Source of the DNA: Lytechinus pictus
Lineage: Eukaryota
Direction of reading: 5' to 3'
DNA: 64,000 nt
Assembly (NCBI RefSeq): GCF_037042905.1
Contig: NC_087250.1
Coordinates: forward strand, 19,780,001 to 19,844,000
How positions within the stretch are numbered: position 1 is the stretch's first letter; each line of letters begins with the position of its first letter. The notes beneath the pieces are model-generated. The model did not search any database, was not told the DNA's origin, and was given only the letters and a program-made list of their open reading frames with translations. Positions 21,301 through 46,080 of this stretch are shown here, in pieces. The position numbers were made by a program, and so were the translations under genes.

Positions 21301-22160
21301 AGCAACTGAGTGTACTCTGAAGCTAGTCTTCAGCAAATGTCAAACAGGCAATCAACAGTTAAATTTGCAAGAAGACGTTTCTAAAAGCAAAACTCCCGAG
21401 AATAGATCATCATAAGGACAAAGAATAGGGGTGATGATAACATGTGTTGTCCATAGGCGATTGTGACTGGTATCTAGCTAGGATTGAAAATGATGAACAA
21501 TGGAATTCAATACGGCAGAGCTATGGAAAACAGGCAGAATATGCTAAACAATTACACACAGAGGCAAACATACCTTATAATAAATGTGGCATTGAGGAAA
21601 TTCAAAGATTACAAAAATAACTGAAAATAACCAAGTAATCGTCATTCCCCAAAAAGAATTTGAACAGTATCATTTTTGTTTGACCCGAGGACAAAGAAGC
21701 AATTGCCCATTGCCCCAGAGCTGTTCTAGTGAATGGACGAGAAGTTGTGTGATATAAAAGGGCCAATCTAGAGCAGTAATGGGCGACATTCTGATCGCTG
21801 GAAAGAATTTGAAGGGGCACATCAATCAGATCCTAGGGAAAGTTGTTGCCAAAGCAACTGAGTGTACTCTGAAGCTAGTCTTCCGCAAATGTCAAACAGG
21901 CAATCAACAGTTATAAATTTGCAAGACGTTTCTAAAAGCAAAACTCCCAAGAATAGATCATCATAAGGACAAAGAATAGGGGTGATGATAATGTGTTGTC
22001 CATAGGCGATTGTGACTGGTAACTAGCTAGGATTGATAATGATGAACAATGGAATTCAATAAGGCAGAGCTATGGAAAACAGGCAGAATATGCTAAACAA
22101 TTACACACAGAGGCAAACATACCTTATAATAAATGTGGAATTTAGGAAATTCAAAGATTT
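18355..22160 (+). repeat. Tandem array of ~550-595-bp chimeric units (Gypsy RT fragment + Polinton pPolB fragment), block 1
   Basis: atgggcgacatt anchor at 18896, 19487, 20056, 20651, 21227 and 21779, plus a more diverged leading partial unit. Confidence 0.9.
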
Positions 22161-22350
22161 GAAAATACAACTCAACCGCAAAATAACAGAGACTTCAAAC
22201 AGTTATCATTTACGTTGGTCCAAAGGACCAGTTATTTTTCCTTTAATTGTATTGGCACAATGATCACATGATCTTGTGACATCACTAAGTGCCTTCTACA
22301 ACAGATCATACTTCTGCACAAAGTGTCTGACAGTGACAGGATACAATATC
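21950..22350 (+). pseudogene. Polinton/Maverick protein-primed PolB, N-terminal region fragment (decayed; duplicate at ~30960-31360)
   Basis: Reads, with stops and frameshifts, ..CCP*AIVTG..ARI..DEQWNSIRQSYGKQAEYAKQLHTEANIPYNKCG...IIYVGP...LYWHNDH.DLVTSLSAFYNRSYFCTKC; resembles the region preceding the pPolB exonuclease. Confidence 0.7.
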
Positions 22351-22619
22351 AACTTAAGTGCAAAATGCTTGCAAGCTCTGGCACATTACAGACTGCACAG
22401 CACCTCAGAGGCGGTGGAACATCAGGCTCATACAATGAAAGTGGAGGGGCACCTATTGTTTGGCAGACAAAAGGTGCCTCTCCACTTTCTATGTCCGAGC
22501 CTGATGTTCCGCTGCCTCTGCTGCACCCGCCAAGAATGACAATCTTCATCACTGCGATGTGTGTCACATAGTGTGGAGGTATACAGCTTCTGGGAGAGAA
22601 TTTGTGATGGAGAAGGAAT

Positions 22620-22870
22620 TACATGACTGGATGGAGGAGCTTAGTCAGTATGACATGCGCCTGGAACACCGCCCAGGCAAGAAACATGTCAATGCCAATG
22701 CTCTGTCTAGGGTCCAATTGCCGAAGGCGCTCTGTGAAGAGTATCGTTTGGGGTTTGATCTGCAGCAACTGCCATGCGGAGGCTGTGGGTACTGCTCCGA
22801 GGCACATCAAAACTGGGCCACATTCGGCACGGTGGTGGACAATGTTGTGCCTTTCGCAGGCCGTGCCGCA
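22620..22870 (+). pseudogene. Gypsy LTR-retrotransposon RNase H C-terminal fragment
   Basis: WMEELSQYDMRLEHRPGKKHVNANALSR followed by CGGCGYC..AH..W..F...VDNVVP. Confidence 0.8.
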
Positions 22871-23479
22871 AAGGTGGGATGTTGCAGAAGTTGACCCCTT
22901 CAAAAATTGTATCACCATCGCAGCAGAATGAGGACATAATATTCAGCATAACTTTTTAATGCCATATGATATACCATCGCCTAGATTCCACCCAGAGGTG
23001 AACCTTCACAGGACATGCAATCCAATATTGCAATAAGATGGCTGATTTATGTTGGCCAACAAGAGTATGTCTATATTCAACATGCTAGAAACAAAGGTGA
23101 GGAATGGGTTGGACAATATAAGGTGGATGGGTTTTGGAGTAACAACAAGAGTTCATGGGTGTTTTTGGTATTACTGCCCAAAATGTTACCATGGCCACAC
23201 ACCCTGTCAATGTGGCAATGTAATGTAATGTCATGACATGACATGTAATGTAATGAAATGTAATGTAATATAATCAATGTCATGTAATTTAAGGAAATGT
23301 AATGTAATGTAATATAATGTAGTTTTGGACAAAGGTGTAGGTGATCTATAATATACTCTTGAAAAGGATTTCCAGGAGAGAGGATTACAGTGCCATATTC
23401 GAGGCCAGAATTATTCACAGTGGAAGGAATGCCACCGAGCATCACTTTAACAAATCCAGGACAGTTGAGTTCATACCAG

Positions 23480-23651
23480 GAAAAGCATTTCCGGGAGGAA
23501 AGCGGATTTCAGTGCCTTATTCAAGACCAGAATCATTCACAGTGGAAGGAATGCCACCGAGCATCCCTTTAAAAAACCCTGGCCAATATGGGAAGGAGGC
23601 TCTTCTTAGCATCCTTCAAAATATTGAAAACATACAATTCCAGAGTATGAG
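23480..23651 (+). pseudogene. GTF2I(TFII-I)-repeat-like exon B, intact-frame copy (stop-containing copy from 23977)
   Basis: KAFPGGKRISVPYSRPESFTVEGMPPSIPLKNPGQYGKEALLSILQNIENIQF matches the I-repeat pattern VPY..VEGLP..IPF..P..YG...L..IL...E.I.F. Confidence 0.6.
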
Positions 23652-24321
23652 GTTGGAGTGAGGTTCTCACTTATTTCGTAATACTGTGCCTTTTACAGTG
23701 GGCTTACAAATGCAAATTTTTATATTACCAGTGTACAGAAAATGAGAAAAATCCAATACGTTGACTTAAACATATCTCTATCCCAGAATCAATAAGTAAG
23801 GTTCTTACCAAGTAGGACATCCACACGTTATGAATTCACATTATCAAGACAATTCTGAATTAGGATTGCAAAATAGTTTTGAACATTTCAAACAAGCCAG
23901 AAAACCTAGAACCAAAAATGTAATGTATTGTATATATGAAGCTAACTTGTTTCAATTGTTGTTGAATTCGTACCAGGAAAAGCATTTCCGGGAGGAAAGT
24001 GGATTTCAGTGCCTTATTCAAGACCAGAATCATTCACAGTGGAAGGAATGCCACCGAGCATCCCTTTAAAAAACCCTGGCCAATAAGGGAAGGAGGCTCT
24101 TCGTAACATCCTTCAGAATATTGAAAATATACGATTCCAGAGAAAGAGGTTCTCACTTACTCCGTAATACCTTTTACAGTGGGCTTACAAATGCAAATTT
24201 TTATATTACCAGTGTACAGAAAATGAGAAAAATCCAGTACGTTGACTTTAACATCTCTCTATCCCAGAATCAATAAGTAAGGTTCTTATCCAGTAGGACA
24301 TCCACACGTCATCAATTCAAA

Positions 24322-24404
24322 TTGCATGGGTTGTGGCTCGTCAGGGGGGGGGGGGGGGCAGACTGCCCCCTCTGCGCCCCCCCCCCCCCGTAGGTACGCT
24401 AGTG
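24322..24404 (-). mobile_element. One terminus of the 6694-type hAT MITE, at the segmental-duplication junction
   Basis: Reverse complement of 6694-6757 (cactagcgtacctacggg...cacaacccatgcaa). Confidence 0.75.
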
Positions 24405-27304
24405 ATAATAAATGTGGCATTGAGGACATTCAAAGATTACAAAAATAACTGAATGGCAAAATAACCGAGTAATCGTCATTTCCCGAAAATAATTTGAACA
24501 GTATAATTTTTGTTTGACCCGAGAACAAAGAAGCATCCCCTTTTTAATACTTGTATTGGAATTGCCCATTGCGGCATTGCCCAAGAGCTGTTCTAGTGAA
24601 TGGACGAGAAGTTGTGTGATATAAAAGGGCCAGTCTAGAGCAGTAATGGGCGACATTCTGATCGCTGGAAAGAATTTGAAGGCGCACATCAATCAGATCC
24701 TAGAAAAAGTAGTTGCCAAAGCAACTGAGTGTACTCTGAAGCTAGTCTTCAGCAAATGTCAAACAGACAATCAACAATTAAATTTGCAAGACGTTTCTAA
24801 AAGCAAAACTCCCGAGAAGAGATCATCATAAGGACAAAGAATAGGGGTGATGATGATATGTGTTGTCCATAGGCGATTGTGACTGGTATCTAGCTAGGAT
24901 TGAAAATGATGAACAATGGAATTCAATACGGCAGAGCTATGGAAAACAGGCAGAATATGCTAAACAATTACACACAGAGGCAAACATACCTTATAATAAA
25001 TGTGGCATTGAGGAAATTCAAAGATTACAAAAATAACTGAATGGCAAAATAACCGAGTAATCGTCATTTCCCAAAAAGAATTTGAACAGTATCATTTTTG
25101 TTTGACCCGAGGACAGAGAAGCATTCCCTTTCTAATACTTGTATTGGAATTGCCCATTGCCCCAGAGCTGTTCTAGTGAATGGACGAGAAGTTGTGTGAT
25201 ATATAAGGTGCCAGAGCCATCGCTGGAAAGAATTTGAAAGCACACATCAATCAGATCCTAGAGAAAGTAGTTGCCAAAGCAACTGAGTGTACTCTGAAGC
25301 TTGTCTTCAGCAAATGTCAAACAGGCAATCAACAGTTAAATTTGCAAGAAGACGTTTCTAAAAGCAAAACTCCCGAGAAGAGATCATCATAAGGACAAAG
25401 AATAGGGGTGATGATAAAATGTGTTGTCCATAGGCGATTGTGACTGGTATCTAGCTAGGATTGAAAATGATGAACAATGGAATTCAATATGGCAGAGCTA
25501 TGGAAAACAGGCAGAATATGCTAAACAATTACACACAGAGGCAAACATACCTTATAATAAATGTGGCATTGAGGAAATTCAAAGATTACAAAAATAACTG
25601 AATGGCAAAATAACCGAGTAATCGTCATTTCCCAAAAAGAATTTGAACAGTATCATTTTTGTTTGACCCGAGGAGAAAGAAGCATTCCCTTTTTAATACT
25701 TGTATTGGCATTGCCCATTGCCCCAGAGCTGTTCTAGTGAATGGACGAGAAGTTGTGTGATATAAAAGGGCCAGTCTAGAGCAGTAATGGGCGACATTCT
25801 GATCGCTGGAAAGAATTTGAAGGCGCACATCAATCAGATCCTAGAGAAAGTGGTTGCCAAAGCAACTGAGTGTACTCTGAAGCTAGTCTTCAGCAAATGT
25901 CAAACAGGCAATCAACAGTTAAATTTGCAAGAAGACGTTTCTAAAAGCAAACCTCCCGAGAATAGATCATCATAAGGACAAAGAATAGGGGTGATGATAA
26001 TATGTGTTGTCCATAGGCGATTGTGACTGGTATCTAGCTAGGATTGAAAATGATGAACAATGGAATTCAATACGGCAGAGCTATGGAAAACAGGCAGAAT
26101 ATGCTAAACAATTACACACAGAGGCAAACATACCTTATAATAAATGTGGCATTGAGGAAATTCAAAGATTACAAAAATAACTGAATGGCAAAATAACCGA
26201 GTAATCATCATTTCCCAAAAAGAATTTGAACAGTATCATTTTTGTTTGACCCGAGGACAAAGAAGCATCCCCTTTTTAATACTTGTATTGGAATTGCCCA
26301 TTGCCCCAGAGCTGTTCTAGTGAATAATCATTTAATGGACGAGAAGTTGTGTGATATAAAAGGGCCAGTCTAGAGCAGTAATGGGCGACATTCTGATCGC
26401 TGGAAAGAATTTGAAGGCGCACATCAATCAGATCCTAGAGAAAGTTGTTGCCAAAGCAACTGAGTGTACTCTGAAGCTAGTCTTCAGCAAATGTCAAACA
26501 GGCAATCAACAATTAAATTTGCAAGACGTTTCTAAAAGCAAAACTCCCGAGAACAGATCATCATAAGGACAAAGAATAGGGGTGATGATAATATGTGTTG
26601 TCCATAGGCGATTGTGACTGGTATCAAGCTAGGATTGAAAATGATGAACAATGGAATTCAATATGGCAGAGCTTTGGAAAACAGGCAGAATATGCTAAAC
26701 AATTACACACAGAGGCAAACATACCTTATAATAAATGTGGCATTTAGGAAATTCAAAGATTACAAAAATAACTGAATGGCAAAATAACCGAGTAATCGTC
26801 ATTTCCCAAAAAGAATTTGAACAGTATCATTTTTGTTTGACCCGAGGACAAAGAAGCATTCCCTTTTTAATACTTGTATTGGAATTGCCCCAGAGCTGTT
26901 CTAGTGAATGGACGAGAAGTTGCGTGATATAAAAGGGCCAGTCTAGAGCAGTAATGGGCGACATTCTGATCGCTGGAAAGAATTTGAAGGCGCACATCAA
27001 TCAGATCCTAGAGAAAGTCGTTGCCAAAGCAACTGAGTGTACTCTGAAGCTAGTCTTCAGCAAATGTCAAACAGGCAATCAACAGTTAAATTTGCAAGAA
27101 GACGTTTCTAAAAGCAAAACTCCCGAGAATAGATCATCATAAGGACAAAGAATAGGGGTGATGATAACATGTGTTGTCCATAGGCGATTGTGACTGGTAT
27201 CTAGCTAGGATTGAAAATGATGAACAATGGAATTCAATACGGCAGAGCTATGGAAAACAGGCAGAATATGCTAAACAATTACACACAGAGGCAAACATAC
27301 CTTA

Positions 27305-30300
27305 GGCCAAGTAAAAAAAGAAAGTAGTTGATCGTCCTCGCGCGCATCTATTTTGGCCGCCGCATGAAAATTTTTACTATTTACTATTAGGAGTGGGCTA
27401 TACATGGGTCAAAAATACTTTTTTTGTAATTTCAATATGACAACAGTTTTTTTTAATTCCTTGTAATGTATCTCAACATGAAACAACAATATTTTTTGTC
27501 TCGGGTCCGAGAAAAAAGTGTGCCGGGCCAAAATCCAAAATGGCCGCCAAAACCCCCCAAAATCACAGTTTTGGCCACAACTTTATTATTTGGTGGTCAA
27601 TTTCTCTGGTTTTGGTGTCTATTCATATGTTTTTTGGGGCAGGCAATTTGTTTTTCCTATAATTAGTACTTTTAAACCATTATTTGTAGAGTTAAAAGGT
27701 AATTATACCTAAATGTTCCCATTTTTGTAGCCTTTTTTCAGCCAAAAAGTGGGTTTTATCATCCTGGGGTTCTGGGATATTAGATGGTACGAGGTCAACA
27801 ATAGCAAGCAGCTTCATATAGCTATATTGCTTTTATTCCTCCACTTTGGGTTTTACGGATATTTGTGAAATATATCTTATTAAATAAAAAAAATGTCAAT
27901 TATCCATTGGGGCTATACAGTATACATATGTACAATGTACTGTACATACATACTGCACTGCATAAATGCATTGGCCACCATGACAGATAACAAGGCTTGT
28001 ATAAACTATAGTGTCATAGAAATGAGCTCTCAGGTTTAGAATTAGATGCCTCAGAAATTGAAGATATGTTTTGTCTCAGAAATTGAGGACATGTTTTGTC
28101 AAATATGCTAATTCAGGGGGCGGAGAGAGGTAATTTACACTGTAGCTATTCTGGGCCCCATTGCATAAAAATTTACCATTATGTTAACTTAACTTAATGG
28201 TAACTTGCATGCAATCCTTTATTCTGATTGGTTGTTGATCAGCGTTACCATGATACTAGTAGTTACCTGACCCCATAAACATAGGCCAGTTAGACACCAG
28301 AACCAGGTTAAAAAAAGCCTCCAAATGAAGAAGATATGGTTAAAAATGTGATGTACGTATATATACATGTATGTGATATTTACATGAAAGTTTAATTTAC
28401 GTTGCTGGTTTCACCATGTACATCAGCTGACAAGGAATCAAATTCTAAACCTTTGAAGCTCATTTCTATGACACTATAGTTTATATACAGGCCTTGTCAT
28501 ATGCCATGGTGGTCAATGCATGGATATATGCAGTGTAGTACAGTGTAGTACAGTGCATTGTACACCGTATAGCCCCTATGGATAAATGACATTTTCTTTT
28601 ATTTGATAAGATATATTTCACAAATATCCGTAAAACCCAAAGTGGAGGAATAAAAGCAATATAGCTACATGAAGCTGCTTGCTATTTTTGACCTCGTACC
28701 ATCTAATATCCCAGAACCCCAGGATGATAAAACCCACTTTTTGGCTGAAAAAAGGCTACAAAATGGGAAAATTTAGGTAAAATTACCTTTTAACTCTACA
28801 AATAATGGTTTAAAAGTACTAATTATAGGAAAAACAAATTGCCTGCCCCCAAAAACATATGAATAGACACCAAAAACCAGAGAAAATGACCACCAAATAA
28901 AAAAGTTGTGGCTAAAACTGTGATTTTGAGGGGTTTTGGCGGCCATTTTGGATTTTGGCCCGGCACACTTTTTTCTCGGACCCGAGACAAAAAATATTGT
29001 CATTTCATGTTGAGATAAGGTAAAAGGAACACAAAAAAACTGTTCCCACAGTAAAACCAAAAATCACCCATTTATAGCCCACTCCTATTACTATTTTCAA
29101 AAATTGGCTTTAAAAAAAAAAAAAAAAAAAAAATGGTGATGTTTCTCCTCCGTGCCTGCTTTCCTTTTTGATTGCAGCATCATTTTTCTTGATATCTACT
29201 ATTTTTATGGCTGCTGATTAGCGAAAAAAAATCACAAGATTGGCGAGTGATTTGCTCTCATGTGCTCTGGGATCTCTCTCGCAACTTCAAAAACAATTGC
29301 TAAGTCCGATATCGCCGTAACTGCAAGAAGGAAAAAAATTCTGATTTGTTTTTTTATTGGAATTTTGAAGATACCATCATAAATTAGCGAGAAAATAAAG
29401 TTTGCAAACTCGGAAAAGATCACGGATTTCTTCATTTTTAGTGCATTTTCCGGGACCCCGCTTCCTAAATCTGAACTAATCTGTCGCGTGCTTTGGAAAT
29501 ATGGCGCAGATAAATCAATTTTAATGATGTAATTTGTATTTTAGCGGGGTATTTTGGTGAGTGATAGCGCCAGTACTTCTATGTGTGTTACGGTGAATGA
29601 GCTGTGCTTGTGACTCTGTTGGGTAAATGCATGTGTGCTGGGATGATGTGATTGACTGTGCTGGCGCGACATGTGAATTTGTGAAATGAATTGAATTTTC
29701 TGGCAAGTTTTCTTACGTCAGCAGGCAATGCATTGAATATTCAAAAAATAATTTGAAGTGGGTTATTCATTATCAATATTGAAAATCATTAATGGGATTC
29801 CAGTAAGTGCCAATTCTGTTCAAATTTGATAAACTTCATTCTTCCTCGAGCTATTCAATTTGATGGACAATTGTAAAAATTAGTAAATAGATCTAACACT
29901 AACAGTTACAAATATTGAAATAATAAACATTATGTGAACAATTAACAATTAATTCAATAATCATTTAACATTTGATATCAATTAAAAAAATGAATAAAAA
30001 TTGAACAGTATTTAACATTATGTAAACGAATATACAAGCAGCTGGAAACTGCGATGCGAAACCATGCCCAGAGCTAAAAAAGAGATTGGCTCTGGAAAAC
30101 TGAACATGGCTCCATGGTAATAAAAATGACCCCTCCCCCAAATGCATGTTTTACCCTTACATATATATTAATATAGAATAATGTTTAAATCATTCACTTG
30201 ACATGAACATTTTGTTTTACAACAAGTAGCGGTATACATCAGTAATACTTCAGTAGATTTTTATCGCATAATATATTTTCCATATAGATTTCCAATCAAT

Positions 30301-30587
30301 TGCATACATGTATATATATATATATTTCTACTCATTTATTATTAATATTTGAGCATGCATCGATCACATAATTCGAGCTTGACATGGCCCGACAATCATT
30401 TGAATAAAAAATAGCAAAAAAAATAGTAAATAGTAAGGACCTCCCTCATCACTGATGTCAAAAAACGGGCCGAGAAAATGCCTCCTTGTTTTTAAAAAAA
30501 ATAGCAAGATAGCAAATAGTAAGGACCTCCCTCATCACTGCTCTCAGAAAACCCGGACGATCAACTACTATCTTTTTTTACTTGGCC
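27305..30587. mobile_element. Non-autonomous PIF/Harbinger-type DNA transposon (3283 bp)
   Basis: ~33-bp TIR ggccaagtaaaaaaagaaagtagttgatcgtcc / ggacgatcaactactatcttttttacttggcc, 3-bp TTA TSD; the empty site ccttataataaatg is present in sister repeat units. Confidence 0.9.
27388..29087. mobile_element. Foldback element with ~660-bp inverted arms, nested in the Harbinger-type element
   Basis: Arm 27388-~28050 is the reverse complement of ~28435-29087; flanked by a 7-bp direct repeat ttactat. Confidence 0.85.
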
Positions 30588-31624
30588 TTATAATAAATGT
30601 GGCATTGAGGAAATTCAAAGATTACAAAAATAACTGACCAAGTAATCGTCATTCCCCAAAAAGAATTTGAACAGTATCATTTTTGTTTGACCCGAGGACA
30701 AAGAAGCAATTGCCCATTGCCCCAGAGCTGTTCTAGTGAATGGACGAGAAGTTGTGTGATATAAAAGGGCCAATCTAGAGCAGTAATGGGCGACATTCTG
30801 ATCGCTGGAAAGAATTTGAAGGGGCACATCAATCAGATCCTAGGGAAAGTTGTTGCCAAAGCAACTGAGTGTACTCTGAAGCTAGTCTTCCGCAAATGTC
30901 AAACAGGCAATCAACAGTTATAAATTTGCAAGACGTTTCTAAAAGCAAAACTCCCAAGAATAGATCATCATAAGGACAAAGAATAGGGGTGATGATAATG
31001 TGTTGTCCATAGGCGATTGTGACTGGTAACTAGCTAGGATTGATAATGATGAACAATGGAATTCAATAAGGCAGAGCTATGGAAAACAGGCAGAATATGC
31101 TAAACAATTACACACAGAGGCAAACATACCTTATAATAAATGTGGAATTTAGGAAATTCAAAGATTTGAAAATACAACTCAACCGCAAAATAACAGAGAC
31201 TTCAAACAGTTATCATTTACGTTGGTCCAAAGGACCAGTTATTTTTCCTTTAATTGTATTGGCACAATGATCACATGATCTTGTGACATCACTAAGTGCC
31301 TTCTACATCAGATCATACTTCTGCACAAAGTGTCTGACAGTGACAGGATACAATATCAACTTAAGTGCAAAATGCTTGCAAGCTCTGGCACATTACAGAC
31401 TGCACAGCACCTCAGAGGCGGTGGAACATCAGGCTCATACAATGAAAGTGGAGGGGCACCTATTGTTTGGCAGACAAAAGGTGCCTCTCCACTTTCTATG
31501 TCCGAGCCTGATGTTCCGCTGCCTCTGCTGCACCCGCCAAGAATGACAATCTTCATCACTGCGATGTGTGTCACATAGTGTGGAGGTATACAGCTTCTGG
31601 GAGAGAATTTGTGATGGAGAAGGA

Positions 31625-31880
31625 ATTACACGAGTGGATGGAAGAGCTGAGTCAGTATGACATGCGCCTGGAACACCGCCCAGGCAAGAAACATGTCAAT
31701 GCCGATGCTCTGTCTAGGGTCCCATTGCACGAGGTAGTCTGTGAAGAGTATCGTTTGGGGTTTGATCTGCAGCAACTGCCATGCGGAGGCTGTGGGTACT
31801 GCTCCGAGGCACATCAAAACTGGGCCACATTCGGCACGGTGGTGGACAATGTTGTGCCTTTCGCAGGCCGTGCCGCAAAG
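31625..31880 (+). pseudogene. Gypsy RNase H C-terminal fragment, duplicate copy
   Basis: WMEELSQYDMRLEHRPGKKHVNADALSR. Confidence 0.8.
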
Positions 31881-32480
31881 GTGGGATGTTACAAAAGTTG
31901 ACCCCTTCAAAAATTGTATTACCATCGCAGCAGAATGAGGACATAATATTCAGCATAACTTTTTAATGCCATATGATATACCATCGCCTTGATTCCACCC
32001 AGAGGTGAACCTTCACAGGACATGCAATCCAATATTGCAATAAGATGGCTGATTTATGTTGGCCAACAAGAGTATGTCTATATTCAACATGCTAGAAACA
32101 AAGGTGAGGAATGGGTTGGACAATATAAGGTGGGTGGGTTTTGGAGTAACAACAAGAGTTCATGGGTGTTTTTGGTATTACTGCCCAAAATGTTACCATG
32201 GCCACACACCCTGTCAATGTGGCAATGTAATGTAATGTCATGACATGACATGTAATGTAATGAAATGTAATGTAATATAATCAATGTCATGTAATTTAAG
32301 GAAATGTAATGTAATGTAATATAATGTAGTTTTGGAAAAAGGTGTAGGTGATCTATAATATACTCTTGAAAAGGATTTCCAGGAGAGAGGATTACAGTGC
32401 CATATTCCAGGCCAGAATTATTCACAGTGGAAGGAATGCCACCGAGCATCACTTTAACACATCCAGGACAGTTGAATTCA

Positions 32481-34047
32481 TACCAGGAAAAGCATTTCCG
32501 GGAGGAAAGCGGATTTCCGTGCCTTATTCAAGACCAGAATCATTCACAGTGGAAGGAATGCCACCGAGCATCCCTTTAAAAAACCCTGGCCAATATGGGA
32601 AGGAGGCTCTTCTTAGCATCCTTCAAAATATTGAAAACATACAATTCCAGAGTAAGAGGTTCTCACTTATTCCGTAATACCTTTTACAGTGGGCTTACAA
32701 ATGCAAATATTGATATTACCAGTGTACAGAAAATGAGGAAAATCCAATACGTTGACTTTAACATCTCTCTATCCCTGAATCAATAAGTAAGGTTCTTACC
32801 CAGTAGGACATCCACACGTTATCAATTCACATAATCAAGACAATTCTGAATTAGGATTGCAAAACAGTTTTGAAAATTTCAAACAAGCCAGAAAACCTAG
32901 AACCAAAAATGTATTGTATTGTATATAACGCTAACTTGTTTCAATTGTTGTTGAATTCGTACCAGGAAAAGCATTTCCGGGAGGAAAGCGGATTTCAGTG
33001 CCTTATTCAAGACCAGAATAATTTACAGTGGAGGGAATGCCACCAACATCCCTTTAAAAAACCCTGGCCAATATGGGAAGGAGGCTCTTCTTAGCATCCT
33101 TCAAAATATTGAAAACATACAATTCCAGAGTAAGAGGTTCTCACTTATTCCGTAATACCTTTTTCAGTGGGCTTACAAATGCAAATATTGATATTACCAG
33201 TGTACAGAAAATGAGAAAAATCCAATACGTTGACTTTAACATCTCTCTATCCCTGAATCAATAAGTAAGGTTCTTACCCAGTAGGACATCCACACGTTAT
33301 CAATTCACATAATCAAGACAATTCTGAATTAGGATTGCAAAACAGTTTTGAAAATTTCAAACAAGCCAGAAAACCTAGAACCAAAAATGTATTGTATTGT
33401 ATATAACACTAACTTGTTTCAATTGTTGTTGAATTCGTACCAGGAAAAGCATTTCCGGGAGGAAAGCGGATTTCAGTGCCTTATTCAAGACCAGAATAAT
33501 TTACAGTGGAGGGAATGCCACCAACATCCCTTTAAAAAACCCTGGCCAATATGGGAAGGAGGCTCTTCTTAGCATCCTTCAAAATATTGAAAACATACAA
33601 TTCCAGAGTAAGAGGTTCTCACTTATTCCGTAATACCTCTTTCAGTGGGCTTACAAATGCAAATATTGATATTACCAGTGTACAGAAAATGAGAAAAATC
33701 CAATACGTTGACTTTACATCTCTTTATCCCAGCACCCATAAGTGAAGGTTCTTATCCAGTAGGACATCCACACGTTATCAATTCACATTATCAGGACGAT
33801 TCTGAATTAGGATTGCAAAACAGTTTTGAACATTTCACACAAGCCAGTAAACCTACAACCTAAAATGCATTATATTGTATTGTATATAAAGCTAACTTGT
33901 TTCAATTGTTGTTGAATTCGGTCAGGAAAAGCATTTCCGAGAGGAAGGCGGATTTCAGTGCCTTATTCAAGACCAGAATCATTCACAGTGGAAGGAATGC
34001 CACCGAGCATCCCTTTAAAAAACCTTGGCCAATATGGGAAGGAGGCA
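32481..34047 (+). repeat. ~478-bp tandem array, each unit carrying the GTF2I-like exon B
   Basis: Exon starts at 32487 (intact), 32966 and 33444 (1-bp deletion), and 33926 (truncated). Confidence 0.85.
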
Positions 34048-34957
34048 GTTAATAAGAACATAGGAGGAGAGGAGGCCAGTAGGGCATGATACTAGGAAGT
34101 TCTTTCAGGTAAGTGGGGATTCTAATGCATGGTCTGAAGGCGATGATCCTCTAGCCAGGCATCCCCCCAGAGGCGGAGGCAAGGGGTGACAATGAGGGCC
34201 AGAGTAAGAGGAGGGAGGGGCCCCTCGGCTCCACCCCCACCAATGACTTGGCGCGAGGGATGTGCGGGTGGGCATTTTACCTGAAAAGGAAGCTCTTATA
34301 ATATGTTATTTTGTTTAAGGTTCATAACATACACTTCTCATATAAAAAATTTGTAATATCTGGTTTTGTTTTTTCTTCCTGTCACTGAAGTGCAAGATGC
34401 TCAACCAGTTTGGATACAAGTGCCTCTTCTTGGCAGTCCACAAATCGGCAGAGGACTATTTAGTTACTGGCACAGAAGAGGGGCAGAGAATATCACAGGA
34501 TAAAAATCTCCTATTCACATTTTCATCATATGTGGTACCAGAGGGTAATAGAAATAAGTGGTGATACATTTTAGACAGAGCATGCAATGAACCTTCTAGT
34601 CATATCATATACAGCAAGTGCATAATTCATTTATTTGTTAAAATTCATTTTGCAGTGTTGATAATTTTCACGCATTAGCTGTTGTCCCCATCATTCTGAG
34701 TTATTCAGTAACTTTATACTTTTTTTACGGTGTTGCACGTTTTGCATGGCTCAACAATTTACTCTGCCCCTAGAGAAACTGCCACTGTTAAGGTCAAGAT
34801 AACTTAAGTGCTGTACAAGTACATTTTCATCAAATAAGTGTTTTTGCTTTGTTTTGTTTTATTATGGTTTGATAATATTATACTCTTTATTGATTGAGCA
34901 TTTTTCCACAGAATTGAACGGTTGAATATTAATTCATTTTTGTTTTTGTCTTACCAG

Positions 34958-35040
34958 TAACCAGGACCAACCGTCACTAGATTCGCTTGGTGACGAGGCA
35001 CTCAGAAACAGAGTTCAGAATTATTTCAATGAAAGATACA
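34958..35040 (+). pseudogene. GTF2I-repeat-like exon A (NQDQPSLDSLGDEALRNRVQNYFNERY)
   Basis: tttttgtcttaccag acceptor, A|gtgagt donor; LRNRVQNYFNERY resembles the LRxxVExLFNxKY start of the I-repeat; phase compatible with exon B. Confidence 0.55.
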
Positions 35041-35221
35041 GTGAGTAGTGTACCCCTGAGTTTGGATGTTATATGGGTGGTTGGATGTTTTCATTGAATG
35101 ATCAGTGTTGTTTTAGTTTTTTGCTTCTCATGTTCCTGCATTTATTGAACAGACTTTATGCTTAATACAAGTGAAAGATGCTTAATCCTCTAGCAATTCC
35201 TTCCGTGCAGCTGTATATTAA

Positions 35222-35384
35222 TACCTTGGTCACATTTGCTCTACGGCGGCCGTACGGCGAGTTGAAAACAGTCGTTTTATTCATTTTTATTCAAACCACC
35301 GATATGTAGCTGGTACAAACAAATGTTAAAACGGCTGTTTTCGACTCGCCGTACGGCCGCCGTAGAACAAATGTGACCAAGGTA
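35222..35384. mobile_element. TA-flanked palindromic MITE, copy 2 (opposite orientation to 258-420)
   Basis: Same TIRs; internal spacer is reverse-complemented. Confidence 0.85.
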
Positions 35385-36489
35385 TAAGCACAATCTGGTA
35401 GAATGGGAATGCCATTGTGGTGTGATTATGAAGATGCCAATAAAATAGTCTTAAGGTTAAACAGTTTATGTATGTCTCTGAAGCTTAAATGATATTGGCT
35501 GGGCTTCTTATTCAAAAAAAAAAAATTGGGGGGGGGTTTAATATAATTTGGCAGAACACAGAAAAGTGAAAGATATTTTGACATGTATATGTTGATATGG
35601 CGAGTCAAAAGACAGATAAGAAATATGGGGAATATGCAGTGGCGTGCACAGGATTTAGCTATGGGGGGGGGGGGCAAGAAAGCAATTCCCCTGAGTAGAT
35701 ATCAGCACCCAAGTTCCCCAAAGTGGCATACCGATTGGCGGGAAGGGAGCAATGTCATGGCCCCCCTGTGCACATGCTACTGGGGATATGCATTCCTTAA
35801 TTGGACCTCCCCTTAACTTACATGTTTTCATTTTATGTTTCTGATGTTGATTCGGCAGTACAAGGCCAATCAATTATTATCATAATTATTATTATTCTTT
35901 ATAATGAAGATGAACTTCAAGTCAATGAATTACGGCCAGTGCTACCGCAGGTACCCCCTGCCAGCCAGCCCCAGCTAGCTATTTGAGCCAAATCCCTTAA
36001 TCAGAATGAACAAGTACATAGAGGTGGTATAGAGGCAGAGGACCAAATGGAGAATGACAACGACGGTAAGATTAAGTTTTAATCAGACAGTGTGGTGTGA
36101 TTAAATGTATAAATTTCCTTCTAAGTGAATAACATTGATTGTCTATTCATATGGCCAGAATGTCATATTTAAAATTATGAATATTTGTGTCTGCATATTT
36201 GTGTTAAAGCCTGTCTTTAGATCTGGTAAATCCCCCCATGGCTTTATCACTATTCCAAATTATTACTACCTATTATGAATGGGTATGGCCTATTAGTTAT
36301 GATGAGGATAGAGGGAGCTAGATATCAAAGATTTGAATATTTTAAGTTTTAATAAAGAATTGGCGGTTGGAAAAAGATTTAACGGCCAATACACTTCTGA
36401 TGATAGGGGGTTACATCCAGCGCATGTATCAAATTACTCCATATGACAATGAGTTAGATTTACCTCAGGAATAAGACTATGTGCTGAGG

Positions 36490-37700
36490 GCGTGGGCAAG
36501 GTTCTTGTATGTGGAATACTGTTAAGTGCGGTTATGGACTCCCCTTCCAGATGTACCTTCAAGGAATTTACTCAGTTTAATGGAAGCGTGGGGTGCCCCA
36601 CTGTCTTTTGCCAGGGGAGACGATACATACATACAGCAGGTGGCGGTCATACCCATGCATATCCTTCCAAAGCGAGTAATGCATCTGGTCACCATGATCT
36701 CGGAACCCGTGACCAAACCATCAGTTTGCATACTAAGCCCAGGGGAAGGGAAAGCCAGTTGGAGTTAAAGGCCATAGTTTTTTTTTGTCCCGAAATTCGA
36801 CATCATAAATAGAATTGCAGTAGACCACATGCATGGGCTAATTTTAGGTGTGACAACAATGTTGATATCATTGTGGTTTGACAATAGCTCCCATGCAGCA
36901 GAATTCTCCATCTCTAAGCTTGTGAAGAAAGTTGATAGGCATAACAAAACATTTCTACACCCAACTGCATTTCCAGGATACCCATAAAGATCGAAACACA
37001 AATCAAATTTTGGAAAGTGTCTGAGTATAGGTCGTTCATACTATTTTACGCTTTGCCTTTTCCTTGGGGGTATATTGCGTGATGATTATTTCCAACATTT
37101 CTTGTTGCTGAATGATTCTGCATTAATTTTATTGTCTGATTCAATATCAAGTGCATCTCTGTTACAAGCAGAGAACATGTTGAAGCACTTTTGTCTTCGA
37201 ATAGAGAGCCTCTATGGCAAAAGATATATGACCTGGAATGTGCAAAGCCTTCTCCATTATGTAGAGAATGTGAGGTTTTTAGGATCACTTTGGGCCAACT
37301 CCTGTTTTCCATTTGAAGATTTTAATGGTGATATTAAAAATCTATTTCACAGTACAAGGGGCATTTGTTCACAGGTTGTCGATGCTGTTAGTTTACAGCA
37401 AATAATTCCCAACTTTGAACTACCATCCTATTCTGTAGGTTCAAGCGCTCGTTTATTTCATGACCACTTGACGAAACAAAGGTCTCGTAAATTGTCCGAA
37501 GAAATATCTGCTGGAGTGCTTGTGATCGGAACCATGGAAGAAATTAACATTGGCCAGATATATCACATACTGTGCATGGTCAAGTGGTTTGTAAAGTTAA
37601 GAGATTCTCAAGGCTGTTTTAAGAGGTATGGTTATCCACTCTAAGTCCTACTGGCCAGGCATCAAGCGCAATAGCTTTACAGTGGATTTTGGGAGGCAAA
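36490..37700 (+). pseudogene. CACTA/EnSpm (CMC) transposase, frameshifted remnant
   Basis: Ordered motifs DSPSR..FTQFNGSVGCP, DHMHGLILGV....LW, WKVSEYRSFILFY, LHYVENVRFLGSLWANSCFPFEDFNG. Confidence 0.8.
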
Positions 37701-38313
37701 GATAGGAGCATTTGTTTTGGCCAAGTCCTTTATTTCTTGAAATGTTATATTTTGTGTTGTAATCCCATATGTGATAAAAGTTGATGTTGCCACAAGCCCG
37801 TGTACTTTGCCATTGTTCAGGAATTTAAGCATCACAGTTTAGTGTTGTCGTCAGACACATTCACTATTATACGCCTGCAAGTAATATTGTACCTGTACAA
37901 GTAAATGACAAAGGAGAAAGCTATCAGTGTATTTTCAAACTGGAAACAACCAACATTTCCACAATGGGAGGAGGGGTTCTGTGCAATTAGAGAATTGTCT
38001 CATTTTTATTTGTTATTTTATCTGTACTAATAAATAGTATTATTTGATTGTTTGTATCTGTTTAATTTATTCTTCTTTATTTTCATACCACTATAACGAT
38101 CATTATCGCCAACTTCATTTGATTTGAATGTGCATGCAGTTTGCCAGTGTATTGTTACATTTGGATCAATCTATATTGTATCTATTACGTACTGTTAATT
38201 GGAGATGTATGCTTTTGAATTTCATTTTTTTTACATTGGAATCTCACTTTCCACCAGCAACAATTTAGTCTTCTGATTTTTTTTTACTAATTTCTGTGTT
38301 GTTCTCATCAATT

Positions 38314-39084
38314 GCCACAATTCATGGGAAGAGCAGAGCGACAACCTGCAAATTAGATGTCATTCGGCCAAAATCGAAGAGAAACAAGGCAATACCACCG
38401 GCCCTGCAAGTTTTCATCGCCCTGTGATTTTTCGCCACAGGGTCGGTTGTTGACAGCAGTGCCACAATCCATAGAGAGAGCAGAGCGACAACCTGCAAAT
38501 TAGATGTTATTCGGCCAAAATCGAAGAGAAACAAGGCAATACCACCGGCCCTGCAAGTTTTCATCGCCCTGCGATTTTTCGCCACAGGGTCGGTTGTTGA
38601 CAGCAGTGCCACAATCCATAGAGAGAGCAGAGCGACAACCTGCAAATTAGATGTTATTCGGCCAAAATCGAAGAGAAACAAGGCAATACCACCGGCCCTG
38701 CAAGTTTTCATCGCCCTGCGATTTTTCGCCACAGGGTCGGTTGTTGACAGCAGTGCCACAATCCATAGAGAGAGCAGAGCGACAACCTGCAAATTAGATG
38801 TTATTCGGCCAAAATCGAAGAGAAACAAGGCAATACCACCGGCCCTGCAAGTTTTCATCGCCCTGCGATTTTTCGCCACAGGGTCGGTTGTTGACAGCAG
38901 TGCCACAATCCATAGAGAGAGCAGAGCGACAACCTGCAAATTAGATGTTATTCGGCCAAAATCGAAGAGAAACAAGGCAATACCACCGGCCCTGCAAGTT
39001 TTCATCGCCCTGCGATTTTTCGCCACAGGGTCGGTTGTTGACAGCAGTGCCACAATCCATGGGGTGAACGGAGCGACGACCTGC
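38314..39084 (+). repeat. 147-bp tandem array (5 units + partial) derived from a Harbinger transposase HTH segment
   Basis: Units start at 38314, 38461, 38608, 38755, 38902 and 39049; the + frame reads IRPKSKRNKAIPPALQVFIALRFFATGSVVDSSATIH. Confidence 0.85.
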
Positions 39085-40340: not shown

Positions 40341-41445
40341 AATGACTGGTAAAAAGACTAAGTCAGGTGGGGAAAACCTGGGAGTTAAAGCCCAATGAGA
40401 TAAGTGGGAGCTTCCCAGCAAGTTGGTGGAAGGAAGGATACACGTTGGTCCTAATATTCTGGTAATGGGAGAGGAGATAGGACCAATCAAAATAATGAAC
40501 TTTCAAACTTCAATCAACAATGAAAACAAGACCCAGCTCGCTAGCCCGGCATTTCTCGTCATGAATCTCCAGAAGAGAGCGCCAATCTCTTCAATTTTCA
40601 ATCAATATCAAATCAAAGGAGCCTTAATTACTAGTTCTAATTATTATATAATAGTCATTCAATCTTATTCAAATCAATATAACATTAAATTTCTCCACGA
40701 TTCTTTTATCGACGTACATTTTTTTGTTTTTTTCCCCAAAATTTTAACTTGATAACTGAAGAAGTAAGAAGGTAAAGAGGCGGATTTGAAGCTGTTATCG
40801 GCAGCTGTTAAATTTTAGAGTTTTAGGTGAGTGTATTTTCAAATATTTTTGTCAATGTTACATTGACAATGGAAAAAATGATCCCGACAATGGGGACAGA
40901 CGATAAACACAAAATAACTGTCACCGATAACTTTCAAATAACGAAAGATGTGAAAAGGAAAACGATCGAGACAAAGGAATCCCGTAAAGATCGGACAGAG
41001 TATGTCAAATAAATTTTATGTCAGACTCTTTCACATTTTGGTACGCAGGGTGCAGAATTTTTATTCATACAACTGTCCTTTTTTTTTCTCTCACAGGGAG
41101 GGTCAAGTTCGTCAACATCTTCCACGCCCGTAACCATCCAAAGTATCAGGCCACAGAGATTGTAGAACTTTGCAACTTTCTGGCTGCACCAAACGAAGTA
41201 CAGAAGTTTCTAAGTGTCTTCCAGGCAATTTTAACATCTGCAAAGGCAGCAAACCGGGAGGAAGAAAGCGAGAAGTTAGGTACAAAGACTGCCAATTTGT
41301 TTGTGAAAGATGAGGCTAGCAAAGGTGAGAAGGGACAAGGTAACAAAAGGGTGGAGAGAGTTGGATTCTTGTGAAGGTACTGAAATGGATGTAAACATAG
41401 TAAACAAAGATCCCCCTTTACCAAGTCCAAAGAAGGATGCCTGTA

Positions 41446-41720
41446 GTGCTGTGCATCAGCATTTCACCCAAAGATTTGGAGAAAAATGGACCGTTCATCA
41501 AATGAAAGAATTGTGGAAGAGGCAAAGGATACTTGCCAAGATAAAATATAGTGAATACCGAAGAAAGCAAAGAGAAACAGGTGGAGGTCCATCTCCACTG
41601 AAAGCGACTACATTGTACACTACTGATCAAAGAGATTCTGCCGTACGATTTCATTCAGCCCCAAAATCCATACGATGACGATGTCATACTTCAAAATGAC
41701 CAGGCCATTTCAGCCCTGGA
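41446..41720 (+). pseudogene. Myb/SANT-like DNA-binding fragment (Harbinger accessory-gene type)
   Basis: FTQRFGEKWTVHQMKELWKRQRILAKIKYSEYRRKQRETGGGPSP; the ..TGGGP signature follows the helix. Confidence 0.7.
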
Positions 41721-42066: not shown

Positions 42067-45000
42067 TAGGAGTGGGCTATAAATGGGTGATTTTTGGTTT
42101 TATTGTGGCAACAGTTTTTTTGTGTTCCTTTTTACCTTATCTCAACATGAAATGACGATATTTTAGTCTCGGGTCTGAGAAAAAAGTGTGCCGGGCCAAA
42201 ATCGAAAATGGCCGCCAAAACCCCCCAAAATCACATTTTGGGCCACAAATTTTTCATTTGACGGTCTTTTTCTCTGGTTTTGGTGTCTATTCATATGTTT
42301 TGGGGGGCAGGTAATTTGTTTTTCTTAAAATTAGTACTTTTAAATAATTATTCGTAGAGTTATAAGGTGATTTTACTTAAATTTACCAATTTTTAAAGCC
42401 CTTTTTCAGCCAAAAAGTAGGTTTCTTCGTCATGTGGTTCTTGGATATTATACAATACCAGTTGAACAGTAGCAGGCAGCTTATATAGCTATATTTTTTA
42501 TTCCTCCAAAAATTGGGGTTATGGATATTTGCGAAATATATCTCATCAAATAAAAGAAAATGTCATTTATCCATAGGGTAATGTTTTAACCCGCACCCGT
42601 TGCGGTATGGGTTAACCTGCCGGTATGCCCCCGATCGCGGGTTGCGGGCCGTGTTCATTCTCAAACCCGCAGATCGTCATACGAAAAAAAGGGAGAAGTA
42701 ACGACGCATAATAAAAACATAAACAATGAAAATTTAGTTAGGATCATGTGCTCCTTACGTGGCGGATTCTTTTAGAGACGTAGATATTTCCTTTTAAAAA
42801 ATGCCGGCGTTTGTGAACAGTGAACAGGACTGAGACAGTTTGACATAATACATCGAATTGCTCTTTCAAAGGAGCGCCAGTGCAGCGCAGTCAAAATCAA
42901 TCGCATATCGAATTAAGCAAAAAGATAAACGCAGCTTAAGATTAAGAGCGAAGTTGATTATCAATTAGAAATTGTTAGGCCGTGCGAACCTGCTGTCACG
43001 TGACAAAGCTGTCCCACATACGAGTCGACTCAGCTATCGCCAGCCCATTTTATTTGATTCATCTATAAAAATGATAATCACGGATCGCAATCTTTATATT
43101 ATCTTGTTATGATCAATTACCAGTTGAAAATAAAATTGGTGGAAGCAATCTAAACGACCTGAATGAAAATTATCATGTTCATGTTCATAACGATTCAAAA
43201 CAGATCAACGACGCCTAATTTGAGTAAAAATTTGAGTCAGAATGAAAAAAAATGACTGAGTAAAGAAACTAATAAAATAGATGAATGAAAGACAGTTTAA
43301 AACTTTAAAGTAAGTTTGAACTAAAGTGAGATTAAAAAAAATACAATATGAATGAAGAAATGAACGAACCAAACGATAAGTTTGAACTGGGAGGCAGGAG
43401 ATCTTTTAATGAATAAGTGAATATCAATAATGAACTTGAAACTTAATGAATTACTTTCTTATTTTCCACGACAAGTGTTCCCACTCAATGATTGGAGCTA
43501 ATTAATTGGAGCTCACTGCTCATTGATAACATGGGTCCTAGTATGATCCATGCTGATAACAAGGGGACGGGAATCTGAATCCGACACTTTATATATGTTC
43601 CAATATATTATTTGGATAATTCCGCCTCAGTCCTGTTTACGTAACAATGAAATTGATTGACAAACGGCGATGTAATTGGCAGCTGTATCTTCTCTGCAAG
43701 TCTGCATGAAACATTCACTTTCCCACGCTCCCCACCTCCTTGCTAGTCGGCACTATCGATTTATTTACCGTGCAGATTAAAGGAAGTATTACACTTGGCG
43801 GGACATTTGATTTGATATTAATAAAAAGACAGAGCGAAACCTTAAGTTGTTAAGCTCTTGTTAGATAACCACCAAAAACCTGCTGTATTCCGCCTGTTTG
43901 AGAAATTCGGTACTTCCACCATTATCTCCTTATCAGAATCTCAAAATCCCCCTAATTACTGAACAAAGACCCCTTTCTTTTAAATTACAATATACTGTAA
44001 ACACACATTTAGGGTTGATGTTGATGATTTCTTTCCACCATCATTCTGGCTTCATCAACCAAATCGAGTAGACACGGCGAACAGAACGTCTGATGTATGG
44101 AATCATTTCACCGATGACGAGGCAGATAGGGCATATGCACACTGCAATTATTGCAATGCTAGGAGGAAGGCCGGAGAAGGCCGAAATAGCGGGAGGAGTA
44201 ACCTGCGTCGTCATCTCATGGATTGCCTCACTTACGCTCGTCATCGACGTCGTAATGAAGCTGCTGTTCCACAAGCTGCCGGCGACGCCGAAGCAGCAGC
44301 ACACCCCGGGGTAGCACCAGCAGCACCCAATCGTGAACATGAACGACATCCAGTGGCCCCTCGGCCTCGTCCACGAGACGGCCATGTGCAAGAAACTTTA
44401 GCGGAAAACATTGGCAGAAGGGCGAAATACAGGAGGGATAGCGTCAGATCGCAGGAAATAGACAGATCCATCGGAAAAATGATGGCTTTTGATCTTACAC
44501 CCTTCAGTATCGTCGAGAACGACGGGTTCAAGCAGCTTCTTGGGAAGCTGGATTCTCGATACGACATCCCATCTCGTCCGTATTTCTCTCAAACTGTGGT
44601 GCCTGGCCTCTACAATGAGATGAGGGAGAAACTCATCTTTGACATTTATTTATTTTATACTTACCCTCAAAATTTTACATACGCTCAAAGTTTACTTCAT
44701 AGATATATTTTGGTACCATCTACATTTAAACTTGGAGGAAAAATAAGTTTAGAAAGTTCATCATTTTCTGCTCCATATAAATGTTGCCACATCTACATAT
44801 TACAAACAGTACATGTTTCAGATATTAAACCCTTTTTTCTGTTTTGTTTTAGTAACATGGACAAAAAGTCCATGTAACGTAGTTACAAATATTATTCCAC
44901 ATCATAGAAGAAAGTACATGTACATGAGGATTATAAGTTTTTCCATCCTGTCTCTGTATTTGACATGTTTCAAGGTTTATATAAACCTGTTATGGGTCAG

Positions 45001-45755: not shown

Positions 45756-45814
45756 GGAATAATCAACAAAGAAACACATTAAAAAGAAAATGATGCAAAG
45801 AAATGTGCCTGGAG

Positions 45815-46080
45815 TGCATGTGCATCAGCATTTTACCCAAAGATTTGGAGCAAAATGGACCGTTCATCAAATGAAAGAATTAAGGAAGAGGCAAAGGATA
45901 CTTGCCAAGAAGGAATATAGTGAATACCGAAGAAAGCAAAGAGAAACCAGTGGAGGTCCATCTCCATCTCCCCTGAAAGCGACTACACTACTGATCAAAG
46001 AGATTCTGCCGTACGATTTCATTCAGCCCCAAAATCCATACGATGACGACGTCATACTTCAAAATGACCAGGTCATTTCA
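45815..46080 (+). pseudogene. Myb/SANT-like fragment, duplicate copy
   Basis: Near-identical to 41446-41720. Confidence 0.7.

Follow-up and report, generated by a model that had tools for sequence, protein, structure and literature searches.

Exons of an invertebrate TFII-I-like gene family among transposon remnants of Lytechinus pictus, and a tentative origin of TFII-I in a transposon helper gene

How did exons that encode parts of an I-repeat, the domain of the vertebrate TFII-I family (GTF2I, GTF2IRD1, and GTF2IRD2), come to lie beside a CACTA transposase remnant in an invertebrate genome? The question is raised by 64,000 nucleotides of Lytechinus pictus DNA (NC_087250.1, positions 19,780,001 to 19,844,000, forward strand; hereafter the window). 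An earlier note, made from the letters of this DNA, described two exons, A and B, as the halves of an I-repeat and assigned them to a multi-repeat gene carried by a DNA transposon. Exon A (34958-35040) and the start of exon B (32487) read as they were described there. The window exons are best explained as pieces that come from one gene, or from two, in an invertebrate family related to TFII-I. This family is the actual finding; the locus itself is probably debris, and its value is that of a pointer. GTF2I and GTF2IRD1 are central genes of Williams-Beuren syndrome, and the TFII-I family now gains a pre-vertebrate form that reaches back to the cnidarians, with a specific ancestral layout and an N-domain fold that can be tested. 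I-repeats had been described as mainly vertebrate, which understates the record, since Pfam and NCBI labels already place them in cnidarian and echinoderm proteins. A search of open full texts (supplements and subscription papers were outside its scope) found no account of the invertebrate I-repeat proteins, their layout, a MADS-like N-terminus of TFII-I, or a link to KDZ transposons.

The exons were found to encode a genuine invertebrate I-repeat. Exon B matches the Pfam GTF2I family (PF02946) with 41.6 bits (E 1.6e-10; cut-off 27), and the paralogous exons score 29.8-39.3 bits; exon A alone has no Pfam match. The PDB sequences matched by exon B at E<=1 are GTF2I-family repeats in 10 of 10 cases. 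Using a hidden Markov model of 21 vertebrate repeats, the joined A+B peptide was determined to score 51.7 bits over positions 1-71, compared with 35.7 bits for B alone. When B was placed behind shuffled versions of A, the score reached at most 39.8 bits in 300 shuffles. All of these fall below A+B, and the I-repeat call is therefore correct and more than a chance match. The structural comparison suggested earlier also returned the I-repeat fold, which is known from the vertebrate family (PDB 1q60, 2dzr, 2d99, and 2eje). A homologue search with exon B alone gave 16 candidates, none of which scored, and a search with an 8-row alignment gave 182 matches, with 119 of the 120 listed being vertebrate.

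The exon boundaries lead to a gene model different from the one first proposed (Table 1). Exon B had been given a weak phase-2 donor at 32658; the real donor is the strong A/GTAAGA at 32651/2, which makes it a 165-nt phase 1-1 exon; this phase is also seen in the intact C12 gene. The donor of exon A is phase 1, as in all paralogues, and its acceptor is out of phase: the two AGs in front of it give phase 2 (34958) or phase 0 (34965, with the second AG at 34964). At three other intron-containing loci of the same genome (C1, C12, and C9), exon A is phase 1-1. The splicing of B to A, previously taken to be in frame, is out of frame because the B donor is phase 1 and the A acceptor is phase 2 or 0. 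The splicing of A to B is impossible in the genomic order because every B copy lies upstream of A. All of the B copies precede exon N as well, which the earlier note overlooked and which sits between B4 and A. Two candidate models were dropped: B as a terminal exon (stop at 32675), after the phase-1 donor was recognized, and a 19-nt micro-exon near 34772-34790 bridging the phases of N and A, which is supported by no read.

The B copies are not exons of a multi-repeat gene. They arose from a tandem duplication with a unit of ~480 bp (32471-34046) and from a block duplication in which 21573-24322 corresponds to 30586-33310 at 97% identity. Six copies have an acceptor (23480, 23977, 32487, 32966, 33444, and 33926); two of them still have both a GT donor and an uninterrupted frame, and four are broken. 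No open reading frame (ORF) of the window joins multiple complete I-repeats: there is a single A, and the half-repeats stand in tandem in a scrambled order. The multi-repeat gene proposed for this locus thus fails on its donor, its phase, and the order of its parts. In a tree of the N domain and first repeat, the row for the locus groups with C9 and P0186 (support 94/99). For exons N and A the top scores are to C9 and P0186, and for exon B the top score is to the C1 type (119 versus 95); B may stem from another gene than N and A. Exon X may be the acidic linker of the family or may come from the upstream part of the transposase gene.

The intact relatives show the layout from which the window exons derive. 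In echinoderms, cnidarians, and a mussel, the proteins consist of a homeodomain-like domain, an HMG-like domain, the N domain, an I-repeat followed by an acidic linker, and often a chromodomain with an intact aromatic cage. A nemertean relative has an I-repeat and a chromodomain. There is usually one I-repeat; P0001 has two and P0149 (Anneissia japonica) has four, cases of independent expansion of the repeat. In P0149 the repeats stand ahead of an array of C2H2 zinc fingers, and in P0186 (Strongylocentrotus purpuratus) the family core stands ahead of a MATH-like domain; both fusions are either host recruitments or fusions of gene models. Searches of the L. pictus genome with P0135, P0256, and P0162 gave no further clear family locus, with weak matches at C3:3.30 Mb and C4:2.14 Mb. 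A metagenome scan gave five loci of 1-2.9 kb, too short for neighbors, of which four are of the invertebrate type and one is of the vertebrate type. Among viral contigs, 192 pattern matches were obtained and 0 were confirmed. A short ORF without a Pfam match (L043:2368-2550) lies ~0.7 kb upstream of the C9 exon N, and resembles an OB-fold strand motif.

Exon N belongs to the same family. It scores 27.7 bits to the family profile, and is 38% identical to P0186 (E 1.7e-4) and 51% identical to the C9 exon. The N domain is predicted to have the topology of a long helix, a beta-hairpin, and a helix, like the MADS box of SRF and MEF2 and the dimerization domain of NRF1, and not that of a leucine zipper. 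The fold is common to NRF1 (PDB 8k4l) and the MADS-box proteins SRF, MEF2, and SEP3 (1k6o, 1egw, 7x1n, and 7nb0), at identities of 13-20%. No sequence-profile match of NRF1 or MADS proteins to the N domain was found among the best 60 of 95 PDB sequences, nor was there such a Pfam match. NRF1 has a dimerization domain and a separate downstream DNA-binding domain (PMC10810270), and the arrangement of N domain and I-repeat is alike. The joint alignment of N domain and I-repeat to NRF1 including its DNA-binding domain gave a root-mean-square deviation of 14.5. A two-copy prediction for the N domain (P0135 133-212) scored 0.23 against a mark of 0.32, and was counted neither for nor against a dimer. 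The PDB searches run here returned no solved structure of the TFII-I N-terminal dimerization domain.

In the ESM Atlas, the best feature matches (0.92-0.94) for L040:7228-7587 and P0135 130-292 are unannotated Basidiomycota proteins, for a query below the recognition mark. Two structure rows with template-modelling (TM) scores of 0.41-0.42 are likewise unannotated Basidiomycota proteins, and mollusc C2H2 proteins align over the N region; all of these are leads only. Basidiomycetes are rich in KDZ elements.

Homology with vertebrate GTF2I and GTF2IRD1 over both the N domain and the I-repeat is nearly certain, and the exons bear on the origin of the TFII-I family, as had been anticipated. A profile of 14 invertebrate N domains scores 33.7-36.4 bits to shark and amphibian GTF2IRD1 and ~17-21 bits to GTF2I. 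The background of this profile is <=2.0 bits for unrelated fetched proteins and 1.3 bits for reversed sequences, and one truncated family member scores 9.6 bits. The profile-profile comparison of the invertebrate and vertebrate N domains gave 93% (E 3e-7) over 63 columns. The matched stretch falls inside the first 90 residues of TFII-I, which a study of the human protein describes as required for its self-association (PMC4055408). Human TFII-I is known to homodimerize and to bind DNA in a sequence-specific manner; for the invertebrate proteins, dimerization and DNA binding are predicted from the fold. A phase-1 intron interrupts the repeat at the same site, behind the first helix, in the window, in C1, C12, and C9, and in the vertebrate GTF2IRD1-type contig L068, the one vertebrate repeat examined. 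The intron comparison suggested earlier therefore holds in site and phase for this repeat, with the phases of exon B corrected from 1-2 to 1-1. Two vertebrate gene models (P0243 and P0129) break just before the cysteine at which exon N starts, an indirect hint that a second intron is common to the vertebrates and the family. Because of the profile match and the shared intron, the N domain and I-repeat are taken to be the module with which GTF2I and GTF2IRD1 start. In the tree of this module (26 rows, none dropped), the seven vertebrate rows form one clade with support of 100/100, and no resolved branch gives its nearest invertebrate lineage.

The vertebrate proteins thus share with the family the sequence and fold of the I-repeat, an N domain directly before the first repeat, and the phase-1 intron. 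The invertebrate proteins differ in the additional homeodomain-like and HMG-like domains in front, the frequent chromodomain behind, and the usual single repeat in place of five to six. Their genes are multi-copy and dispersed, unlike those of vertebrate TFII-I, and the copy in the window is broken. The transposon-derived part of GTF2IRD2 is a C-terminal fusion to hAT (Charlie8), and non-mammalian proteins labeled GTF2IRD2 are mostly hAT transposases without a repeat, according to PMC10641963; the hAT fusion is a separate event. A review traces the common ancestor of GTF2I and GTF2IRD1 to early vertebrates only (PMC7298749).

The family probably is, or once was, transposon-borne. In the soft coral Dendronephthya, one cluster has 16 members on ~10 scaffolds, with 97-100% identity in the seven compared, although this count is possibly inflated by haplotype duplication. 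In the sea cucumber Apostichopus, one cluster has nine members on five sequences of 27-43 Mb (88-100% identity in the five compared). In L. pictus, the Pfam domains of the Kyakuja-Dileera-Zisupton (KDZ) transposases (PF18758, PF18802, and PF18803) have two matches over the cut-off, both in one intron-rich gene on C1. This gene encodes CxC and KDZ domains, keeps the D, D, and E motifs that have a role in KDZ transposases, and is the only intact KDZ gene found in the genome. The intact family gene P0268 lies on the opposite strand, with the 3' ends 2.4 kb apart, so that the two genes face each other tail-to-tail. The same pair is present in L. variegatus (LOC121428660 and LOC121428662, consecutive accessions; 96.9% and 89.4% identity), which probably represents the same insertion as on C1 and not a second one.

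C6 and C20 hold decayed pieces of the C1 KDZ gene, and C18, C11, and C2 hold more distant ones. None of them adjoins any of the family genes found here, and one of the six KDZ places is paired. A second, diverged KDZ-like gene is located at C18:9504924-9510482 (+), with 35-63% identity to P0300. A tblastn search with P0300 gave no match in the window, and the nearest listed pieces are 11 Mb off, on C6. In other species, the search for KDZ homologues gave one protein among four candidates, to which a CxC2 family search added nothing, and no KDZ fusion was present among 307 fetched proteins. A search for ends shared among the family loci and upstream of the C1 gene gave common repeats only. KDZ elements are reported to carry non-catalytic cargo such as TET/JBP, and fungal TET/JBP cargo is reported to move between KDZ, EnSpm, and other lineages (PMC12730594). 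The links to KDZ and to CACTA could both be true because of this reported exchange between KDZ and EnSpm. No report of an I-repeat or a homeodomain-HMG-chromo protein as cargo of KDZ was found in the literature searched.

Each carrier link comes from one locus. An estimate of uniform chance (0.003 and 0.001) was dropped as a discriminator; it cannot choose between the carriers. KDZ was weighted above CACTA because both partners at C1 are intact, the element occurs rarely, and no mosaic of fragments surrounds them. That KDZ is the main carrier is a conjecture to which we assign slightly less than an even chance, and the same holds for the helper-gene explanation that is built on it. According to this explanation, the window would hold dead and rearranged exons N, A, and B, and perhaps X, of family genes. 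The N domain, as predicted, would be a helix-hairpin-helix dimerizer of the MADS-box/NRF1 type. The homeodomain, HMG box, and I-repeat may bind and bend DNA, judging from their folds, and the chromodomain, having kept its cage, may read methylated histone tails. The family would then be the non-catalytic helper in DNA transposons made of two genes, with KDZ as the best-documented case here. It may bind the ends of the element or its chromatin, support the transposase, and direct insertion or counteract silencing. Vertebrate TFII-I would have come from such a gene by loss of the homeodomain, HMG box, and chromodomain and by multiplication of the I-repeat.

We tentatively propose, as a possibility short of even odds, that vertebrate TFII-I is a domesticated and truncated helper gene of DNA transposons. 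Its ancestor, a homeodomain-HMG-MADS-like-I-repeat-chromodomain protein, would in cnidarians, echinoderms, and molluscs still be carried by KDZ elements and perhaps also by CACTA elements. The "leucine zipper" of TFII-I would be a MADS/NRF1-type domain, a module common with NRF1, the MADS factors, and possibly the unannotated basidiomycete proteins. If the transposon link is true, TFII-I joins the transcription factors that were recruited from DNA transposons, in this case through a helper gene and not through a transposase, and KDZ elements gain a chromatin-reading helper.

Several observations weigh against this proposal. Five of the six family loci are without a KDZ neighbor. Element ends that enclose a family gene were found nowhere, and a common repeat dominated the search of the C1 flanks. 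The family gene on C1 is intact, is conserved in the two Lytechinus species, and has left a processed copy. The C12 gene is intact (467 aa, two repeats), with no transposase detected in 50 kb, and the P0149 and P0186 fusions look like host genes. An old metazoan transcription factor, duplicated and retroposed in several lineages and lost in others, would account for these observations; the KDZ and CACTA neighbors would then be incidental and the window a decayed duplicate in a repeat-rich region. We consider this host origin unlikely, however, given that two distant species carry full-length, near-identical copies on many scaffolds, that paralogues of one genome are widely separated on the tree and depart from the species tree, and that the only intact KDZ gene found is paired with an intact family member. 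The processed copy, at C20:16685080-16686556 (-), covers the whole C1 family gene, lacks introns, and is broken, with 52-68% identity in its main stretches; as a processed pseudogene, it implies that the C1 gene was transcribed in the germ line.

The neighbor of the exons in the window raises CACTA as the carrier. CACTA/EnSpm elements have a DNA-binding helper gene of the TnpA-like type. The transposase remnant lies downstream on the same strand, as the earlier note had reported; it has no Pfam match itself, and is assigned to CACTA because its relatives carry Transposase_21 (PF02992), found over the cut-off ~0.8 kb upstream at 10 of the 15 other listed places that its protein matches. A dispersed repeat past the remnant ends in what we take to be the terminal consensus of a CACTA right end. 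The window lineage, together with C9 and P0186, could thus be the upstream helper of a CACTA element, with the helpers of the family switching between DNA-transposon superfamilies and both carrier links being real. Exons N, A, and X are 0.4-2 kb upstream of the transposase, and the right end lies 0.6 kb past it, which means that a helper gene must be on the upstream side. The window lineage is also distinct on the tree from the one paired with KDZ, and the exchange of TET/JBP cargo cited above offers a precedent.

However, no matching left end was found in 15000-45000; as the remnant has a right end only, exons N, A, and X may at one time have been part of a CACTA element. A different dispersed repeat (~36200-36400) separates X from the transposase, and the surrounding DNA is pieced together from fragments of unrelated elements. 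No CACTA-like sequence is present in 30-50 kb around four other I-repeat loci, namely C9, the closest paralogue (30 kb), C1, C12, and C20. No I-repeat match is located near any of the 15 other listed CACTA transposases; the sixth family locus (C20:16.69 Mb) was compared with the listed CACTA positions only. The remnant and right end adjoin N and A, yet no intact element with an I-repeat gene was found. We regard a CACTA carrier as quite improbable, and the CACTA neighbor is best explained as incidental or secondary. Of the proposal that a DNA transposon carried the gene, the transposon is thus probably right for the parent gene, and the choice of CACTA gains little support (0/4 other loci).

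The window locus itself is very probably a scrambled pseudogene. In a DNA-like contig of another individual, 7 nt are missing at the acceptor of exon A, and the same contig is without the miniature inverted-repeat transposable element (MITE) at 35219-35385. In two stranded RNA runs (one study, ~6% of each read), exon A has no coverage, exon N has next to none, and no read spans a splice joint. RNA reads at the locus are few and unspliced, with the first mate on the + strand, which in most such libraries corresponds to RNA from the other strand. These runs are weak evidence on expression. A search of sequencing runs listed no RNA run with the locus; it gave four runs, DNA-like in the two examined. 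A live gene with an unusual order or alternative splicing (B, then N, A, and X) is very improbable. In its favor, exons N, A, and B1 all have an open frame and canonical GT-AG borders, and the locus is present in other individuals. Against it, homeodomain, HMG, and chromo exons are undetected in the 64-kb window, neither N nor B fits the phase of A, exon X contains a stop, the A acceptor is polymorphic, and the two runs hold no spliced reads.

Table 1. Features of the locus, in positions of the window
Feature	Position	Strand	Description
Duplicate block	21573-24322	+	97% identical to 30586-33310; three further B pieces
B' in duplicate block	23361-23463	+	
B piece in duplicate block	23480-23644	+	open frame, GT donor
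B piece in duplicate block	23977-24141	+	stop, donor lost
B'	32368-32470	+	truncated second type of exon B, diverged (~83%), joined straight onto the B1 acceptor
Exon B1	32487-32651	+	C-terminal two thirds of I-repeat; 165 nt, phase 1-1, open frame, donor GTAAGA
Exon B2	32966-33129	+	tandem copy; in-frame stop and 1-nt deletion
Exon B3	33444-33607	+	tandem copy; lesions identical to those of B2
Exon B4	33926-34046	+	copy truncated at 3' end, without donor
Exon N	34391-34544	+	phase 0-1; homologue of TFII-I N-terminal dimerization domain; MADS/NRF1-like fold predicted for family
Exon A	34958-35040	+	linker and first helix of I-repeat; donor A/GTGAGT
Palindromic MITE	35219-35388		high-copy; in intron after A
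Exon X	35859-36065	+	acidic, proline-rich, phase 1-1, one in-frame stop; 3' of A
CACTA/EnSpm-type transposase remnant	36453-37644	+	5'-truncated; several frameshifts and stops; best genome relative 41%
Dispersed terminal repeat	37931-38238	+	probable CACTA right end; 14 of 27 listed copies end at 38238

Other elements of the window were noted in passing. A 147-bp tandem repeat of about five units (38298-39084) follows directly 3' of the CACTA right end. Tandem arrays of a degenerate coding fragment with a unit of ~590 bp occupy 18354-22191, 24405-27304, 30586-31198, and 32000-32200; the fragment, which lacks a clear Pfam match, resembles a piece of a Polinton-type DNA polymerase. A 3.3-kb insert within this tandem array (27304-30588) has 34-bp inverted repeats at its edges and an inner long inverted-repeat element at 27382-29093. 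A zf-BED domain (Pfam E 1.8e-8) with hAT-like sequence is present at 43984-44877. We take 41307-41678 and 45763-46245 to be Harbinger-type Myb/SANT-like fragments, and 31512-31901 and 22505-22894 to be a fragment of a long-terminal-repeat element. Single exons of transposon-type genes have repeatedly been amplified as short tandem arrays in the L. pictus genome; apart from the B exons at 32471-34046, these include ~8 copies of a KDZ exon at C6:8.80 Mb, ~6 copies of the last KDZ exon at C20:17.19 Mb, and HMG-like exons at C9:1.83-1.85 Mb.

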